Below, one piece after another: positions 28,723 to 36,729 of a stretch of 64,000 bases of DNA. Under the pieces are notes generated by a model, which was given only the letters and a program-made list of their open reading frames with translations, was not told the origin of the DNA and did no database searches. The translations under genes and the position numbers were made by a program. The stretch comes from Chitinophagales bacterium (GTDB lineage: Bacteria > Bacteroidota > Bacteroidia > Chitinophagales > UBA8649), in NCBI GenBank assembly GCA_049610685.1, contig JBMYZU010000007.1, positions 10,954 through 74,953 on the forward strand. Direction: 5' to 3'. How positions within the stretch are numbered: the first letter of the stretch is position 1; every line of letters begins with the position of its first letter.

Positions 28723-30947
28723 TAGCCGTTTAGGCGGGCGGTTAGGCCGTTATCATAAATGCTGTGCAGTGCGGACACAGACCCTATGCTTTCTCCATTC
28801 ACTGAAACATCGTTACCTTGCGTAAGTCCAAGATTTTGAAGTGGAATACCGAGTTCTGTTACTTTTTGCTCAAAGGCCGCAACTTTTGCATCTTCTACAC
28901 TGACAATAACTCGTCCTTGAGCCTCTCCAAAAAAGAAGGCATCCTTGCGTACATCCCCAAGATCTATTGTGGCATTAACCCCAATGCCATGCTCGAAAGA
29001 AGATTCTAACAGGGCAATCATCAATCCCCCATCCGATACATCATTTGCAGAAGCCATAAGTTTATCACGATGAAGGGCTTGTATTCCTTCAATGAGTCGA
29101 ACCTCCTCATCAATATCGAAGTAAGGCGCAGGGCTAATGGATAGACCCTTTATGTGCTGTGCATACTGGCTTGATCCTATATCATTGACAGAATGGCCAA
29201 GAAGGTATACTCGATGCCCCTCAGCTTGGAATCCCATGGGTAGTGCTTCGCGAACATCATCAATCGTTCCAATCATACCTATCGTAGGTGTTGGGTAAAC
29301 TGGCCCATCATCGCTCGACTGATTGTAGAAACTCACATTTCCACCGGTAACCGGGGTATCTAGACGGCTGCAGGCCTCTCCCATCCCTTGGATAGCATTC
29401 ACAAACTGCCAGTAGACATGCTTGTTATATGGATTTCCAAAGTTTAAGCAATTGGTAATGGCAGAAGGTTGGCCTCCAGAACAAGCAATGTTTCGCGCCG
29501 CTTCACAGACGGCAATGGCACCTCCCTTTTTCGGATCAGCGTGGACGTAGCGTGCGTTACAATCTACCGTTAAACAAAGTCCCTTGGTAGATGTGGGGTC
29601 AATTCGAATGACCATGGAGCTATGCTTTTCGTTGGCCGAAGTATTGACTAGACCGACCATATTATCGTATTGCTCATACACCCAACGCTTGGACGCTATA
29701 TTGGGTAAAGCGAGCATAGCCTCTGTCGTGGCCTTAAGATCTGATACGTCTTCAAGAGATGACCAATTGAGCGGCGTATTCCATTCTTTATAGTACGGTG
29801 GCTCTTCATATTCTCTGTGATATACGGGAGCACCTCCTCCAAGCACAAGGCTTTCTGCAGGAATGTTAGCGACAACCTCCTCGCCCATCGTAAAGCATAT
29901 ATTCCCATCATCGGTTACTTCGCCGATAGGTTCGCAAAGTACATCCCAACGCTTGAATATTTCTTCAACCTCAGCCGTGCGACCTTTTTTGATAACAAGT
30001 AGCATGCGTTCCTGAGATTCAGAAAGAAGCATTTCCCAGGCCTCCATATCCTTTTGTCGTGTTGGAACCTTAGATAGGTCAATGCGCATCCCAGCACCAC
30101 CCTTAGCAGACATTTCACTTGTAGAGCAGGTAATACCTGCGGCCCCCATGTCCTGCATACCAATCAGCGCTCCTGTCTTGATTACCTCAAGACTTGCCTC
30201 TAAGAGTAACTTCTCTTGGAAGGGATCCCCCACTTGTACTGCAGGTAAATCCTCTTCAGCATTTTCCGATAAATCTTTTGAAGCAAAAGCGGCTCCAGCG
30301 ATACCATCTTTTCCTGTAGCTGCACCGACAATATATACCGGATTCCCTGCGCCGTAGGCTGTAGCTGATACGGTATGATTCACATCACATATTCCAACTG
30401 ACATGGCATTAACCAATGGATTGGTATGATATACCTCATCGAAGAAAACCTCACCCCCCACAGTAGGGACACCAAAAGAGTTGCCGTAATTCCCAATCCC
30501 CTTCACCACACCTCTAAGAAGATGTTGCGTTCGGGGAAGATCAGGATTTCCAAAACGAAGGGAGTTTAGCGCGGCAATAGGCCTTGCACCCATGGTGAAA
30601 ATATCCCGGTGAATCCCCCCTACTCCAGTAGCAGCCCCTTGGTAAGGTTCAACAGCAGATGGATGATTGTGTGATTCAATTTTAAAGGCACATCCTATAC
30701 CGTTACCCAGGTCCACAAGTCCAGCGTTTTCCTCCCCTGCTTCGACAAGTAGTTTTTTCCCCGAACGAGGTAGGGTCTTAAGCCAGACAATACTGTTTTT
30801 ATACGAACAGTGTTCACTCCACATTACTGAATAGATGTGGAGCTCCGTTAAGTTGGGTTCGCGACCTAAATGATCACAAATTGCATCATATTCTTCCGAG
30901 AGAAGCCCAATTTCAGTGGCGCGTGCGCGTAAGTCTTTATCAGCCAT
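28722..30947 (-). CDS. purL: Phosphoribosylformylglycinamidine synthase subunit PurL (small type)
   Basis: [54 protein letters not shown]. Confidence 0.98.
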
Positions 30948-31167
30948 AGTACGTTTGATTATCAATCGCCTTCTAAATAATTCAAAATTCTAATCAAACA
31001 TACAACCTGGGAGGCACACTATTTTTCAACTTTTTCCATCATTTTTCAAGAAAATTCAAAAATGTTGTGATATATGTTGGATTATTTGTGGATTACTCCA
31101 AAAAAAAGTAAAAATATTGATGCATTTTTGCTGAAACATAGCAATTCACGATAAATTTTTAAATAAT

Positions 31168-33351
31168 ATGCAAAACGACGTTTTATCCACAATTCTCAAT
31201 CAGCATGATATTCAAGTTGATGGTTCTCCGGAAAAAGTATCCGCCTACTTCGAAGAACTCGTTTTTACAAAGTCCAAAATGAAAGAATATCTTTCAAAGG
31301 ATGTTTACAGTGAAGTCATCGAGTGCATTGAATTGGGAAACAAAATCAATCGAGACATCGCTGGACATGTAGCTTCAGCCATGCGTTCATGGGCCATGAG
31401 TCACGGTGCAAAAAGCTATACCCACTGGTTTCAACCATTAACAGGAGCTACTGCAGAAAAGCACGATAGCTTTTTTACGCCAAAATCAGATGGACAGCAT
31501 ATTGAACAATTCACAGGTGATGCGCTTGTACAGCAGGAGCCTGATGCATCAAGCTTCCCTAATGGAGGGATACGCGCAACTTTTGAAGCGCGTGGCTACA
31601 CCGCATGGGATCCATCCTCCCCTGCCTTTATTCTTGAATTGAAAGCGGGCAAGGTTCTTTGCATTCCTACCATATTCATCTCCTACACAGGTGAGGCTTT
31701 AGATTACAAAGCCCCTTTGTTAAAGTCTATTCACTTTCTCGAGAAGCATGCACTTCCCATTGCACGTATGTTTGACCGCCATGCAAATCGCGTACAACCT
31801 ACCTTAGGCTGGGAGCAAGAATACTTCTTAGTGGATGAGCGCATGTATTATGCCCGTCCAGACTTGGTTATGGCAGGACGTACTTTAATTGGGTCAGCCC
31901 CTGCGAAAGGCCAACAACTCGACGACCACTACTTCGGGTCTATCCCTGAGCGAGTGTACTCTTTTATGGTTGACTTGGAGTACCAAGCGCATCGATTAGG
32001 TATTCCTATCCAAACGCGACACAACGAGGTAGCGCCTGGACAATATGAGTTTGCGCCAATGTTTGAGTCGGTTAATGTTGCTGTGGATCACAATCAACTC
32101 GTTATGGACCTTATGGATCGCGTAGCAAGTCGACATAAACTCAAAGTACTTAAGCACGAAAAGCCGTTTGCCGGAATCAACGGAAGCGGGAAACACAATA
32201 ACTGGTCATTAGGAACAGATACAGGCAAAAACCTTTTATCCCCTGGCTCAACACCGAAAACAAACCTTCGTTTCTTGACCTTCTTTGTGAATGTGATTAA
32301 AGCCGTGCATGAGCATGCCGACGTATTACGTGCATCGATTGCCTCTGCTGGAAATGATCACCGATTAGGAGCTAATGAAGCGCCTCCTGCCATCATCTCA
32401 GTCTTTATCGGCTCTCACCTTACGGGAGTTTTAGATTCCATCTTAGAACGCGTAGAAAAGGGCAAGAAGTTTGACGAAGAAAGCAATGCAAACCTTAAGT
32501 TGGATATCCATAAAATGATTCCTGATGTATTGCTCGATAATACCGATCGAAACCGTACTTCACCTTTTGCCTTTACAGGAAACAAATTTGAAATCCGTGC
32601 TGTCGGCTCTTCGACCAACTGTGCCTCCCCTATGATTGTTATGAATACAATTGTTGGGGCGCAATTAGAAGCGTTCAAGAAAGATGTAGATGCATTGATT
32701 GCTAAAGATGAAAAAAGAGACGGCGCCGTCTTACGCGTATTGAGTCGATACATCGAGGAATCAAAAGCAATTCGTTTCGAAGGGGATAATTACACCGAAG
32801 AATGGGCGAAAGAGGCTGCGAAGCGCAAATTGTCGAATGTGAAGGACTCAGCACATGCTTTAGGACTTTTTGAAACCGACAAAGCGATTAAACTCTTTAC
32901 TAGTAGTGGCGTCTTTAATGAGGTGGAATTAGAAGCTCGTCAGGAAATCAACTACGAGAATTACAACCTCAAACTGCATATTGAGGTCAATGTATTGGCT
33001 GATATGGCTCGTACTATGGTCGTACCTGCTGCCATTCGATACCAGAAGAAGATTGCAGACACTTTGGAAAGCCTTGAAAAGAATGGCGTTAAGTCTACTA
33101 GCTATATGCGTAAGGAACTTGCGCTTATCGGTGAGCATATCGAAGGCTTACTTGAGCTTACCGGCCAACTTGATGAGGTTTCTGCAAAAGCCTCTTCCAA
33201 GAAACATGCAAGAGATGAAGCCCGCTACATTGCAAAAAATATTATTCCGTATTTTGAAAAGGTTCGCGGACATTGCGATGCGTTAGAAGCTCGTATTAGC
33301 GATGCAGAGTGGCCATTGCCGAAGTACCGTGACATGTTATTTATTCGATAA
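31168..33351 (+). CDS. glnA: Glutamine synthetase type III
   Basis: HWFQPLTG.TAEKHD, QEPDASSFP.GG.R.TFEARGY, GWEQEYFL, HEKPFAGINGSGKH, DRNRTSPFAFTGNKFE. Confidence 0.97.
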   Translation: MQNDVLSTILNQHDIQVDGSPEKVSAYFEELVFTKSKMKEYLSKDVYSEVIECIELGNKINRDIAGHVASAMRSWAMSHGAKSYTHWFQPLTGATAEKHDSFFTPKSDGQHIEQFTGDALVQQEPDASSFPNGGIRATFEARGYTAWDPSSPAFILELKAGKVLCIPTIFISYTGEALDYKAPLLKSIHFLEKHALPIARMFDRHANRVQPTLGWEQEYFLVDERMYYARPDLVMAGRTLIGSAPAKGQQLDDHYFGSIPERVYSFMVDLEYQAHRLGIPIQTRHNEVAPGQYEFAPMFESVNVAVDHNQLVMDLMDRVASRHKLKVLKHEKPFAGINGSGKHNNWSLGTDTGKNLLSPGSTPKTNLRFLTFFVNVIKAVHEHADVLRASIASAGNDHRLGANEAPPAIISVFIGSHLTGVLDSILERVEKGKKFDEESNANLKLDIHKMIPDVLLDNTDRNRTSPFAFTGNKFEIRAVGSSTNCASPMIVMNTIVGAQLEAFKKDVDALIAKDEKRDGAVLRVLSRYIEESKAIRFEGDNYTEEWAKEAAKRKLSNVKDSAHALGLFETDKAIKLFTSSGVFNEVELEARQEINYENYNLKLHIEVNVLADMARTMVVPAAIRYQKKIADTLESLEKNGVKSTSYMRKELALIGEHIEGLLELTGQLDEVSAKASSKKHARDEARYIAKNIIPYFEKVRGHCDALEARISDAEWPLPKYRDMLFIR

Positions 33352-33361
33352 ACTACGTTGT

Positions 33362-34420
33362 ATGATCTACCGAAATCTCCTTGTTTTCTGCTTTGGCCTC
33401 TTGTCCATATCAACAATGGCCCAAGACCTTCCTACGGTTTACGCCCATGGCGGACAAGGAAGAAATGTAAACTGGTCAGCCATCAAAGCAGAACATGATC
33501 GCATGTATGGTGATGATGATATGCCCGGATATTTTGAAAACATGTGCTGGAGAGATGTCGAAGTATTAAGTGCTTCTTCAACCCTAGGAAATCAAGGTGC
33601 ATATAACTATAGCGTAAATAACTTAAACGATACTGATCCATTTACTGCTTGGGTAGAAGGGGAAGATGGTTATGGCATTGGAACGTATCTCTATATACGA
33701 GGAAATGTAAATTCGATTTACAATGGATATCAGCGCTCCCCTCAATCATGGGCCATGAATTCTCGAGTAAAGAAGTTTAAGGTTTATCGAAATGGAGAGG
33801 CCTTATGCTACTTAGTGCTAAAGGATGAAATGGGTGATCAACGATTTGAACTTCCTGGTTTTGATTACAATGATGATCAAGTTGTTTACCGTTTCGAAAT
33901 AATGGAAGCCTATCCGGGGAGTAAGTGGGCAGATGTGGCCATCACAGAAATAAGAGGAAGCGGATGCTGCTTTTCTGGCAATACAGCAATTACCTCCTCT
34001 TCATCCTCCTATCCAATTCACACTATAACTGAAGGCCTCCCGGTGACCACGATTGATTTAGAGACGGGGAGTGTCACTGAAACGAGCACCAAGCTTGTCA
34101 CCCAACAGCATCATCTTAGTTTAATCACTGTTCGTTGTGGAGATTACGAAGTGCATTTAACGCCTGACCACCCGCTATACGTTAAGGGTGTTGGATTTAC
34201 CTCACTACCCTCATATGCCCGTACCCTCGGTCTAGCATCTTATCAAGAACTAACTGGTACTGCAGAGATTATGGTCTGGGATGAAGAAGGTCAAGAGACT
34301 CAATTTAAGACCATCGATGCCATCACCCTCAATAAGGGCTACTTTGACACCTATACTATCTTAGGCCTTAAGGAAGGCAACACTTACATTGCCAACGGCT
34401 TTATCACGAAAACCTACTAA
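33362..34420 (+). CDS. Secreted protein: NADase-type glycan-binding (discoidin-like) domain plus C-terminal Hint domain
   Basis: Signal peptide from ATG 33362; ASSTL...TAWVEG..G.GIG...NGY....NSRVK...YPG.KW.D.AITEI; then GCCFSGNT.I, LTPDHPLYV, NTYIANG. Confidence 0.8.
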   Translation: MIYRNLLVFCFGLLSISTMAQDLPTVYAHGGQGRNVNWSAIKAEHDRMYGDDDMPGYFENMCWRDVEVLSASSTLGNQGAYNYSVNNLNDTDPFTAWVEGEDGYGIGTYLYIRGNVNSIYNGYQRSPQSWAMNSRVKKFKVYRNGEALCYLVLKDEMGDQRFELPGFDYNDDQVVYRFEIMEAYPGSKWADVAITEIRGSGCCFSGNTAITSSSSSYPIHTITEGLPVTTIDLETGSVTETSTKLVTQQHHLSLITVRCGDYEVHLTPDHPLYVKGVGFTSLPSYARTLGLASYQELTGTAEIMVWDEEGQETQFKTIDAITLNKGYFDTYTILGLKEGNTYIANGFITKTY

Positions 34421-34480
34421 TCGCCTAGAGAAGTATAGCACAATCGTTGGGAAGCACTCTTTCGGCGTATATTCGCAGGA

Positions 34481-35575
34481 ATGAGGGAAATGATTGATAT
34501 TGTTGGAGGCAGTATAGCAGGACTTTCTGCAGGAATCGCCTTTGAACAGTTGGGTTTCCCTACAAGGATTTGGGAAAGAGACAATCCAATTCATAGTAGA
34601 GATGGCCATGCCTTTCTTGTGTTAGGCTCTGCGCTTGGCTCTTTGCATCACCTTGGTATCGCCGAAGACCTTAGAAATACATCGGCTAATATTCAACGAG
34701 GAATGTACTTCGATAACAAGGGAGATTTGATTAAATCCTTTGACCTACAAGATACCTTTGGCACAAAACGAATTGACTTAGTACGTATTTTAACAAGTAA
34801 GTATTCAGGTCGTTTGCACTACGATTGCGATTTAGAGAAAATCAGTTTCGACGACGACCAATATACCCTTGAATTTCAAAGTGGCGAAATCACCAAAGCA
34901 TCTACCTTGATTGGTGCGGATGGTGCTAATAGCCGAATTCGAAAGTGGCTGTATCCCAATCATAAACTTCATACAGGAGGGTATTTCGAAATTGTTGGCT
35001 CTTGTGAAAATGCGAGTATCGTCAAGGCTTTGGATAACTCATTTCAAAAGCACTTTACTCAAGATCACATAAACCAGGAGTATATCGCTTTTGGAATTCT
35101 TCCTACGGGGGGGGACGATTTGACATGGTTTTTGCAAATACCGGTAACTGTACCTGAGCAAGTGAATGACCTTTATAATGTGGAGTCACGAGAGAAATTT
35201 CTTCAAGAGCTTTCGAGCAATTGGTCCAACCTTATAGCAGAAGCCATTGAATCAACAGATACGAATTCCACCTATGTATGGCGCTCAGGATATATGGACC
35301 TGTTGCATACTTTTCATTTTCACAACATGTTTTTGATTGGAGATGCCTGTCATCCTCTGTTGAGTATGACAAGCCAAGGGGTTAACACTGCCTTAGAAGA
35401 CGCCATTCACTTAGCCCAACTCTTTAATGACAATGATCACCAAGACGTTGGGAATCTATATTATGCCAATAGAAAAGAGGTTATTGCTGATCGCATAGAA
35501 TATGGCAAGCACCTTGCCGATCGTTTTACTAAACATCCTGAGCAATGGGTACAAATGGTTCATTTAGCCGACTAA
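34481..35575 (+). CDS. FAD-dependent monooxygenase (UbiH/salicylate hydroxylase-like)
   Basis: IVGGSIAGL, LIGADGANS.IR, LIGDACHP...SQGVNTALEDA. Confidence 0.88.
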   Translation: MREMIDIVGGSIAGLSAGIAFEQLGFPTRIWERDNPIHSRDGHAFLVLGSALGSLHHLGIAEDLRNTSANIQRGMYFDNKGDLIKSFDLQDTFGTKRIDLVRILTSKYSGRLHYDCDLEKISFDDDQYTLEFQSGEITKASTLIGADGANSRIRKWLYPNHKLHTGGYFEIVGSCENASIVKALDNSFQKHFTQDHINQEYIAFGILPTGGDDLTWFLQIPVTVPEQVNDLYNVESREKFLQELSSNWSNLIAEAIESTDTNSTYVWRSGYMDLLHTFHFHNMFLIGDACHPLLSMTSQGVNTALEDAIHLAQLFNDNDHQDVGNLYYANRKEVIADRIEYGKHLADRFTKHPEQWVQMVHLAD

Positions 35576-36729
35576 CTGACGAAAACAAAAAGACGTTAAG
35601 GTCAAGAGCCTTCAATTTCCGGTGGGCGACCCTTGAATCGGACATTATCCCATTGACAGCAGCCGATCCAGACATTCCTGTACCGGGTCCGATTATTGAG
35701 GGTATCCAAGAATATATAAAGGAACCATACCTCAGTTATGGCCCAGCCGAGGGACTTCCCGAGTTTTGTCAAGGTGTTGCGGACTTTTACAACAAGCATA
35801 AGGGAGGTGATATTCAAGCTGAAGAGGTTTTTGCCATCAACAGTGCGGCCAGTGGAATGTTTCTTGTAGCGCAAGCCGTTGTTAAGCCAGGTGACGAAGT
35901 CATTATTGCCGATCCCGTAGATTTTCTGTTGGAGCGCTCTGTACTAGCTGCTGGAGGAGTAATCAAGCGATTTGACAGAAGACCTAATTCTTCCATTCTT
36001 GAGGCCATCCAAGAGCAGTTTTCCTCAAAAACAACGATGTTATCCCTATGCAATCCGCATAATCCAACAGGAGAAATCTTTGATCGTGATACGTTGGGAG
36101 CCATTTTAACATGGGCAAAACAAAAGGACATCTATGTTGTGAGCGATGAGATATGGAGTGACATCGTCTACGATGGCGCCACGGTCCATTCCGTGCGTTC
36201 CTTCGACAAATCGCTAACTGAGAAGGTCTTTACAGTCTATGGCTATTCCAAAAGCTTTGGTTTGGCTGGACTTCGCATTGGCGCACTCATCACCCCTAAT
36301 CCTGAATGGCGGGATACCATGGTCAAGCTGAGTTACGCTGCTGATACGGCCTATGGTGTAGCTACACTCTCTCAGGTAGGCGCTGTTGCTGCTATGCAAG
36401 ATGCAAGCTGGTCGGCTTTTCAAGATGTATTAAAGCACTATCAGCAAAACCGAGATCGGATAACGCAGTTTGTGGATTCTGTGCCTACTCTATCAGCTAT
36501 CCCACCAAAAGCGACTTATCTGTATTGGATAAATATCGAGCAGACTGGGCATAGCGCTGATTTTATAGTCGAGCACCTCAGAAAAAACCATGATTTAGCG
36601 GTGATTCCAGGCAACCCGACCTTCTTTGGACCGCGAGCTGAGGGGCATATCCGACTTTCTTTTGCTACGACAACTGATATTCTTGAAGAAGGGCTAAGGA
36701 GGTTACGAGAGGGAATTGAGCGTCTTTAG
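35545..36729 (+). CDS. PLP-dependent class I/II aminotransferase (MalY/PatB-like)
   Basis: IPLTAADPD, LCNPHNPTG, VSDEIWSD, YSKSFGLAGLR, HIRLSFA. Confidence 0.9.
   Translation: MGTNGSFSRLTDENKKTLRSRAFNFRWATLESDIIPLTAADPDIPVPGPIIEGIQEYIKEPYLSYGPAEGLPEFCQGVADFYNKHKGGDIQAEEVFAINSAASGMFLVAQAVVKPGDEVIIADPVDFLLERSVLAAGGVIKRFDRRPNSSILEAIQEQFSSKTTMLSLCNPHNPTGEIFDRDTLGAILTWAKQKDIYVVSDEIWSDIVYDGATVHSVRSFDKSLTEKVFTVYGYSKSFGLAGLRIGALITPNPEWRDTMVKLSYAADTAYGVATLSQVGAVAAMQDASWSAFQDVLKHYQQNRDRITQFVDSVPTLSAIPPKATYLYWINIEQTGHSADFIVEHLRKNHDLAVIPGNPTFFGPRAEGHIRLSFATTTDILEEGLRRLREGIERL

Follow-up and report, generated by a model that had tools for sequence, protein, structure and literature searches.

A family of bacterial lectin–Hint proteins with the N-terminal catalytic residues kept and the C-terminal ones lost, and its predicted self-processing

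We analyzed one gene in a 64-kb window, meaning here the whole 64,000-nucleotide stretch of Chitinophagales bacterium contig JBMYZU010000007.1 under study. The gene encodes a 352-residue precursor in which a signal-peptide-like N-terminus is followed by an NADase-type glycan-binding domain and a terminal Hint domain. Judged from family alignments, this Hint domain has specifically lost the C-terminal catalytic pair of its relatives and kept the whole N-terminal set. The reading that we favor, at about even confidence, is that it serves as a pro-domain that removes itself, in a single turnover, from a lectin located in the periplasm or associated with the envelope, and that its thioester would be resolved by water or a thiol. 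Coordinates are positions in the window and residue numbers those of the 352-residue protein (Table 1). An earlier note on this DNA had proposed the order signal peptide, NADase-type lectin and Hint domain, and this architecture is supported by matches to PF25302 and NF047619, by a Hint profile and an AlphaFold2 model and by an N-terminal hydrophobic segment. The positions given there for the TGC TGC codons of Cys202 and Cys203 and for the T-P-D-H-P motif proved exact.

As a single sequence, the C-terminal half stays below the curated cut-offs of Hint_2 (E 0.23; 12.3 bits against 28.4) and intein_Nterm (E 0.014; 16.4 bits against 24.5), and it reaches Protein Data Bank (PDB) entry 2lwy at E 0.0063. 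A profile of 38 family members matched 2lwy at E 6.5e-11 over residues 204–334 and the bacterial intein-like (BIL) domain BIL2 of Tetrahymena (6tmm) at E 4.3e-5. In an AlphaFold2 model built on the 38-member family alignment (predicted local distance difference test (pLDDT) 90.9; predicted template modeling score (pTM) 0.83), the C-terminal part adopts the horseshoe-like, all-beta Hint fold. Foldseek returned 65 PDB matches at E <= 0.001; among the matches listed, all were inteins, BIL domains or Hedgehog proteins, with Tetrahymena BIL2 at the top. Structural alignment with VIA gave a Z score of 19.7 for 2lwy (root-mean-square deviation (rmsd) 1.6 Å over 134 residues), 18.7–19.4 for BIL2, 18.9 for the Mtu RecA mini-intein and 17.5–17.8 for the Hedgehog structures 1at0 and 6tyy (rmsd 1.8–1.9 Å over 134 residues), and rmsd values across the compared entries ranged from 1.6 to 2.0 Å over 133–134 residues. 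On this model, fold and catalytic blocks place the C-terminal domain in the Hint superfamily, and the Hint assignment that had been made from motifs is borne out by profile and structure alike, at a level well above chance. Model residues 203–351 correspond to intein residues 1 to last in several entries, and Cys203 corresponds to Hedgehog C258. These aligned ranges make Cys203 Hint residue 1, Cys202 residue −1, Thr351 the terminal-Asn position and Tyr352 residue +1.

For a view of the catalytic residues beyond one protein, we searched a Hint-only profile from 28 sequences (the window and related loci) against 1.84 billion representative proteins, which gave 7706 matches at E <= 1e-3, 917 at <= 1e-10 and 49 at <= 1e-30, and we re-aligned 300 complete Hint domains: 121 of the lectin family, 63 other single-Hint domains and 116 from multi-Hint relatives. 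Although mean identity within the lectin family is about 40%, Cys203, His251, Thr267, His270 and Pro271 are invariant in its 121 domains, so that the block-A Cys and block-B TxxH recognized earlier in this one protein (Cys203, Thr267 and His270) are retained throughout. Cys1 and His270 are also present in every other single-Hint domain (63/63) and every multi-Hint relative (116/116; together 179/179).

The C-terminal end has fared differently. The protein closes with ...T-Y-I-A-N-G-F-I-T-K-T-Y-stop, and counting from Gly346 the family has Lys or Arg at the fourth position (96/121), Thr, Val or Ile at the fifth (107/121, with Asn in 0/121) and Tyr at the sixth (119/121), where 109 of the 121 proteins stop. 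The multi-Hint relatives, by contrast, carry His at the fourth position in 95 of 113 domains and Asn at the fifth in 105 of 113. A C-extein starting with Cys, Ser or Thr is absent, Tyr352 alone preceding the stop codon. With the Asn lost and no C-extein present, splicing and C-terminal cleavage are excluded; the earlier note had already concluded that the protein cannot splice, having noticed the missing terminal His-Asn, in whose place Lys350 and Thr351 stand. By these residues, only N-terminal thioester chemistry would remain possible for the Hint domain, and an N-to-S acyl shift at Cys202–Cys203 is plausible and matches what the conservation pattern predicts. Comparison of the sequences indicates either descent of the lectin family from canonical His-Asn Hints or a sister relation to them. 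Two FastTree phylogenies over 144 columns, one with 158 Hint domains and one with 165, have support < 80 at 68–70 of ~160 forks, and in them the tail types cluster but not as single clades.

A further histidine accompanies the loss of the terminal Asn. The His251 position is His in 140/140 Tyr-ending domains and in 37/39 domains of a sister type (profile position 53), that is, in 177/179 Asn-less terminal Hints, whereas His-Asn-type relatives have His in 39/107 and Arg in 41/107; the sequences compared are related, and these counts are not independent. In the model, His251 is on the strand ahead of Thr267, at a distance of 16 residues in sequence. Neither 2lwy nor BIL2 conserves it, and by profile alignment it falls two residues after the position of BIL2 His48, a residue described as binding zinc close to the active site (PMC8616854). 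The general base of Hedgehog, Asp46 (Asp303), is reported to activate cholesterol, and an Asp-to-His exchange to keep activity (PMC9163320). His251 is a candidate base for resolution of the thioester, by water or another nucleophile.

Ahead of the Hint domain, residues 1–20 follow the layout of a signal peptide, with a basic start, a hydrophobic stretch and T-M-A, after which we propose cleavage. An N-terminal hydrophobic segment is found in 113 of the 121 family proteins, most of the other 8 being truncated gene calls; a hydrophobicity heuristic served as the sole means of judging signal peptides across the family. Cys10 sits inside the hydrophobic core, and the V-F in front of it does not resemble a lipobox. 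A Pfam scan of the protein returned only two families at E <= 10, with no type IX secretion system (T9SS) C-terminal sorting domain at that threshold, and the C-terminus is the Hint domain itself. These results agree with the earlier statement that the protein has neither a lipobox nor a T9SS C-terminal domain. The surface-display route for the lectin that had been suggested on this basis appears doubtful, because a Sec/signal peptidase I substrate of a diderm is by default periplasmic and because ~7/121 homologues have a lipoprotein anchor of their own (a convincing lipobox plus a linker of 50–130 residues). The mature protein would begin with a segment (residues 21–61) that bears the motif L-P-T-[IV]-x-A-x-G-G-x-G-x-N-[VI]-[ND]-W, is matched by no library model and was modeled with a short strand and, over residues 38–49, a helix. 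The lectin domain that follows is matched by PF25302 over residues 66–197 (E 3.8e-25; 89.2 bits against a cut-off of 27; profile positions 7–143 of 146) and by NF047619 over residues 71–198 (E 4.9e-32; 110.8 bits against 38; positions 1–130 of 130). Searched against PDB sequences, the family profile found 7ji1, the Streptococcus pyogenes NADase translocation domain, at E 3.5e-6 over residues 75–198. Glycan binding is presumed from the family name and this relative.

The position of the junction is reflected in homologues that lack a Hint domain. One free-standing lectin (L050:5980-6603) ends ...A-G-C; L057:437-1207 (−), P0297, P0302 and P0304 end ...V-H, the His being the −1 residue of a sister clade with an H-C junction; and L058:304-912 ends ...G-A-H. 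No Hint remnants were found downstream of L050, L057 and L058, which rules out that these are frameshifted full-length genes. Residue −1 therefore belongs to the lectin module and, because free-standing lectins stop at −1 with no remnant behind them, gain or loss of the Hint domain seems to occur cleanly at the scissile bond.

Residue −1 is a cysteine here, and its probable partner is Cys62. A single Cys at the N-terminal end of the lectin and one at its C-terminal end occur together in 133 sequences (124 with a CC-Hint and nine lectin-only proteins ending ...S-C-G-G). One sequence has the N-end Cys without the C-end Cys, five have neither and two have a CC junction yet no N-end Cys; the sister clade has C-x3-C at the lectin N-end and His at −1. 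This co-occurrence is suggestive and not statistical, as the groups amount to only about four lineages. In the model, residues 58–62 align with N-extein residues −7 to −3 of solved precursors, that is, beside residues 196–202. F5/8-type-C domains typically carry a disulfide joining their two ends. Taking co-occurrence, model position and this domain habit together, we read Cys62–Cys202 as probably the end-to-end disulfide of the lectin domain, in which case the predicted scissile bond would directly follow a disulfide-locked residue. The earlier idea that the extra Cys could be a redox gate fits less well: Cys202 co-occurs with Cys62 and Hint-less relatives end at or near it, so it is probably not a dedicated gate, although it may exert a redox influence on the neighboring Cys203. 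Cys also stands at −1, without a lectin, in 30/107 His-Asn-type relatives, a point that this assignment leaves unexplained.

Two side observations concern the same region. The sister clade (L048:56-1270, L059, L061, P0297) has a conserved G-C-S-W-Y-C-G-G at the lectin N-end, and its two Cys, together with the His and Cys that lie near the junction in sequence, could form a metal site or an alternative staple. A contig of a related strain in metagenome run X2 begins to match exactly at the Cys203 codon (33968), with 10 differences in 108 nt, and upstream of 33968 it falls under the 90% likeness threshold; the break may reflect ordinary divergence or recombination at the domain junction.

In the course of events that we favor, the precursor would be exported through Sec, lose its signal peptide at about residue 20 and fold into two tightly packed domains. 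Assisted by Thr267 and His270, the Cys202–Cys203 peptide bond would rearrange to a thioester on Cys203, and attack by water or a small thiol would yield a 20.7-kDa lectin (residues 21–202), its last residue Cys202 stapled to Cys62, and a free, spent 16.4-kDa Hint domain. Self-removal is supported by the resemblance of this predicted product to natural Hint-less lectins, which end at or within a few residues of −1. It is also supported by the lack of any region after the Hint domain able to bind an adduct and by the lack of a conserved partner gene. BIL domains are described as self-cleaving at their N- or C-terminal ends (PMC5874633). Several points weigh on the other side. A Hint domain that does nothing but remove itself is hard to rationalize, yet the fusion has been kept in two clades (CC and H-C). 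The His251 that is fixed in Asn-less Hints would be as well suited to activate a specific nucleophile as to activate water, and Cys203 would have to stay reduced in an oxidizing compartment beside a probable disulfide. Moreover, cleavage is predicted from sequence and model and the location from a hydrophobicity heuristic.

The unexplained retention of the fusion in two clades and the invariance of His251, specific to Asn-less Hints, would both be accommodated if the Cys203 thioester were instead attacked, in a Hedgehog-like ligation, by a specific nucleophile of the envelope (an amine or hydroxyl of peptidoglycan, a lipid head group, a glycan or another protein), so that the lectin became anchored through the Cys202 carboxyl with its binding loops facing away from the anchor. 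We consider this possible but on the unlikely side. The architecture is Hog-like, with a secreted cargo followed by a terminal Hint domain without Asn or C-extein; the Hedgehog structures align well with the model, as given above; and, by the accounts cited, Hedgehog stays active with its Asp46 changed to His (PMC9163320; PDB 6tyy) and BIL2 attaches the ubiquitin-like domain on its N-terminal side to lysines in other proteins (PMC8616854). As for domain context, some Asn-less terminal Hints in the same clade come after TPR or YARHG regions, and some after SH3_3 or MORN together with the lectin. Their presence on SH3_3 (with the lectin) and YARHG would fit ligation, as we take these bacterial modules to be envelope- or wall-associated. 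Against ligation, the protein ends one residue past the Hint fold and is thus without a sterol- or adduct-recognition region, and neither the window nor 55 related loci hold a conserved neighbor to act as helper or provide an acceptor. Homologues without a Hint domain work with a C-terminus that is free at this position or close to it, and ~7/121 homologues are already anchored as lipoproteins. The equivalence of His251 to Asp46 is a candidate one, and the profile alignment places His251 two residues past BIL2 His48. A stricter version, in which the protein is a minimal bacterial counterpart of Hedgehog, that is, a self-anchoring lectin whose thioester is resolved by an envelope nucleophile, for instance an amine or hydroxyl on peptidoglycan or lipid, with His251 as the base, so that the disulfide-stapled C-terminus holds the discoidin domain covalently without sortase, T9SS, lipobox or adduct-recognition region, we put forward only tentatively, as a rather doubtful idea.

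Alternatively, the Hint domain may have kept its fold and residues without cleaving. It could be a structural or binding module, or a redox or metal switch that rarely acts, leaving an intact 37-kDa two-domain lectin. The pTM of 0.83 implies fixed packing of the two domains, and Cys203, next to a probable disulfide in an oxidizing compartment, could be trapped; there is precedent in redox-trapped precursors of inteins (PDB 3nzm is among our structure matches), and a BIL domain under zinc control has been reported (PMC8616854). We nevertheless hold a non-cleaving Hint domain to be improbable: Cys1, Thr and His persist in 121/121 domains at ~40% mean identity, as selection for catalysis predicts, the equally 'structural' C-terminal catalytic set was lost, and Hint-less relatives end at the junction. 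Still less likely, and in our view very improbable, is that the Hint domain is the payload and the lectin merely targets it, cleavage serving to free the 16-kDa Hint or a thioester-activated form. The closest relatives do include proteins that consist almost wholly of back-to-back Hints, but no conserved surface feature or motif was found beyond the catalytic set and the fold core, and the thioester would be gone once cleavage had occurred. Self-removal by water or a thiol thus stays the reading that we favor.

Table 1 Features of the lectin–Hint gene and its product (positions in the 64-kb window)
Feature	Position	Strand	Basis or remark
Lectin–Hint gene	33362..34420	+	352-residue precursor, 39.4 kDa; stop codon included in coordinates
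Signal-peptide-like N-terminus, residues 1–20	33362..33421	+	Sequence layout and hydrophobicity heuristic
N-terminal segment of the mature protein, residues 21–61	33422..33544	+	Conserved in family alignment
Cys62	33545..33547	+	Invariant in 38/38 aligned sequences; probable Cys202 partner
NADase-type glycan-binding (F5/8 type C, discoidin-like) domain, residues 66–198	33557..33955	+	PF25302, NF047619
Cys202/Cys203 junction, predicted scissile bond	33965..33970	+	Both Cys in 121/121 family domains
Hint domain, residues 203–351	33968..34414	+	Family profile, AlphaFold2 model, structure alignment; 16.4 kDa including Tyr352
His251 (Hint residue 49), candidate general base	34112..34114	+	121/121 in lectin family
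Block B T-P-D-H-P (Thr267, His270, Pro271)	34160..34174	+	Aligns with T-x-x-H of 2lwy and BIL2
Degenerate block G N-G-F-I-T-K-T-Y-stop	34394..34420	+	Lys350 at penultimate-His position, Thr351 at terminal-Asn position, Tyr352 at +1

Searches with the full-length protein found homologues in 269 clusters at E <= 1e-3, the best 120 of which cover 93–100% of the query; among these 120, 117 carry a lectin Pfam match only and three also a Hint-type Pfam match. Its genome (2.17 Mb, 88% complete) has one copy of the gene, and near-identical DNA occurs in metagenome runs that come from 12 studies and are labeled seawater, marine or estuary. Among GTDB species genomes we identified 55 related loci, almost all in Bacteroidota of the orders Flavobacteriales, Cytophagales and Chitinophagales, with hosts that include Aquirufa, Saprospiraceae, Crocinitomicaceae and Chryseolinea, as well as one metagenome-assembled genome (MAG) labeled Bacillota with a locus of the sister type. 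The survey of the architecture across Bacteroidota that the earlier note had suggested, made here on an even sample of 401 genomes, gave nine matches at E <= 1e-10 and both domains in four genomes; the CC type occurred only in the genome of the window itself, and the other junctions were H-C in two and L-C in one.

Gene context adds no partner. When 505 open reading frames (ORFs) from the 55 related loci and the window were clustered, the lectin–Hint family itself was present in 55/56 sources and the best neighbor cluster in 5/56, and none of the 24 most widespread neighbor clusters included the window. Without a conserved neighbor, no operon partner can be proposed.

Outside the lectin family, the closest Hint relatives have 2–7 Hint matches, mostly arranged head to tail (P0122, P0123, P0125, P0135, P0142, P0147 and P0153). 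Their junctions run from His-Asn through Lys or Arg and 0–2 residues to Cys-Phe, so that the arrays have almost no exteins. The largest example, P0122, has 1285 residues and seven Hint stretches; P0122 and P0135 end in Pro/Gly-rich tails, and P0125 is named as a Nanoarchaeota MAG protein. Many related bacterial Hints score above the cut-off of Pfam AXH (PF08517, the Ataxin-1/HBP1 module), for example P0170 with 50.5 bits against 33, and where such proteins have been named automatically, for instance as 'Ataxin-1 and HBP1 module', the name seems to come from a cross-match with the Hint fold. Two Atlas clusters labeled Uroviricota (tailed phage), of 279 and 734 residues, are rich in Hint, PT-HINT and Intein_splicing matches and are possibly phage proteins with non-intein Hint domains.

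The start codon of the lectin–Hint gene was placed at 33362 because close homologues (83–84% identity) open with identical residues. We rejected an alternative ATG at 33302 (372 residues), from which the reading frame would overlap the upstream ORF and which these homologues do not use. The chosen start lies 10 nt after the stop of that upstream ORF (31168..33351 (+), 727 residues), which from its translation looks, by eye, like a type III glutamine synthetase. From the 10-nt spacing the two genes may be co-transcribed; their adjacency is not kept in the 55 related loci. Downstream, two ORFs that overlap by 31 nt resemble, again by eye, an FAD-dependent monooxygenase (34481..35575 (+)) and a PLP aminotransferase (35545..36729 (+)), neither with an evident link to the lectin–Hint gene, and an antisense ORF of 82 residues (34361..34609) overlaps the 3′ end of the gene. 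A promoter and terminator scan of 30800..34800 yielded five promoter-like and three terminator-like sites against shuffle means of 8.9 and 3.6, none usefully placed. In metatranscriptome library X20, two 151-nt contigs with 0–1 differences span 33775–34068 and a third, more divergent one lies over 34165–34326; since an RNA library may contain DNA, these contigs are at most a weak hint of expression.

These proteins make up a new family, although self-processing proteins of its kind, with a C-terminal Hint domain on a secreted bacterial protein, are known. Among the papers listed by a literature search on the PF25302/NF047619 lectin domain and on lectin plus Hint combinations, none dealt with a lectin–Hint family. 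Notable in this family are a predicted scissile bond beside a probable disulfide, a C-terminal chemistry lost in full and a His specific to the clade. In the clade of the query, the Hint half is invisible to current models and NCBI names the proteins as glycan-binding, so that annotation misses half of each protein and a probable maturation step. With 37 kDa in its mature form, a single gene and a Hog-type logic without an adduct-recognition region, the protein offers a simple test bed for asking which agent, outside the cytoplasm, resolves the thioester of a Hint domain and whether such a domain can work directly beside a disulfide. If ligation were true, it would amount to a new way of fixing proteins covalently in the diderm envelope. 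A natural Hint domain of 150 residues with predicted N-terminal activity only, evolved for an oxidizing compartment, could also serve thioester generation or self-cleaving tags.

Among known systems, inteins end in Asn followed by a C-extein nucleophile, whereas here Thr351 follows Lys350 and Tyr352 precedes the stop; with both terminal Asn and +1 nucleophile absent, the protein is not an intein. The nearest solved relatives by sequence and structure are the BIL domains (2lwy of Clostridium thermocellum; BIL2 of Tetrahymena BUBL1, 6tmm/6y75), which share Cys1 and TxxH with this Hint domain and are described as occurring in secreted or variable proteins and self-cleaving without canonical splicing (PMC5874633). 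BIL domains, however, are internal and flanked on both sides, whereas the Hint domain here is terminal with one Tyr after it, and the solved BIL2 has a terminal Asn (construct C1A-N143A) where the lectin family has Thr, Val or Ile. Secreted bacterial proteins with a divergent C-terminal Hint-like domain were noted in Burglin 2008 and, according to that paper, by Dassa and Pietrokovski (PMC2362128). As described there, they likewise are bacterial and have a signal peptide, a conserved N-terminal region with conserved cysteines before the junction and a divergent C-terminal Hint; by the same description they are set apart in coming from myxobacteria, Photorhabdus, Serratia, Yersinia and Reinekea and in having an unrelated N-terminal region (PMC2362128). 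In S. pyogenes NAD glycohydrolase (7ji1, the founder of PF25302), the lectin-type domain precedes an NADase toxin domain, whereas here it precedes a Hint domain, and the Pfam scan at E <= 10 showed no enzyme or toxin domain.

The sister clade (P0170, P0214, P0221, P0235; L048, L049, L059, L061) has the same lectin family and domain order (PF25302 at E 1e-40 to 1e-56) and a Hint domain that is also Asn-less and terminal or nearly so. It differs in its H-C junction, its ...G-V-E-E-L tail and the 8–24 residues after the Hint; its Hints pass Pfam cut-offs (AXH, Hint, Vint) and are annotated automatically, whereas those of the query clade are not. The Hedgehog/Hog proteins (1at0, 6tyy; PF01079) share a secreted cargo and a C-terminal Asn-less Hint domain without C-extein, and they are confined, as this protein is predicted to be, to N-terminal thioester chemistry. 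Their Hint is followed by a sterol-recognition region, whereas the Hint alignment here runs to residue 351–352 of 352. The Hedgehog junction motif is G-C-F, against x-C-C-F here. Hedgehog C143, given as a Cys at the block-F position (PMC12054796), is without counterpart, as the lectin family has no conserved block-F Cys. PF01079, the Hedgehog Hint module, gave no match to the protein at E <= 10; among the best 120 homologues, P0063 does match. Without a recognition region or a PF01079 match, the protein is not a Hog protein by membership; by analogy, it may work like one.

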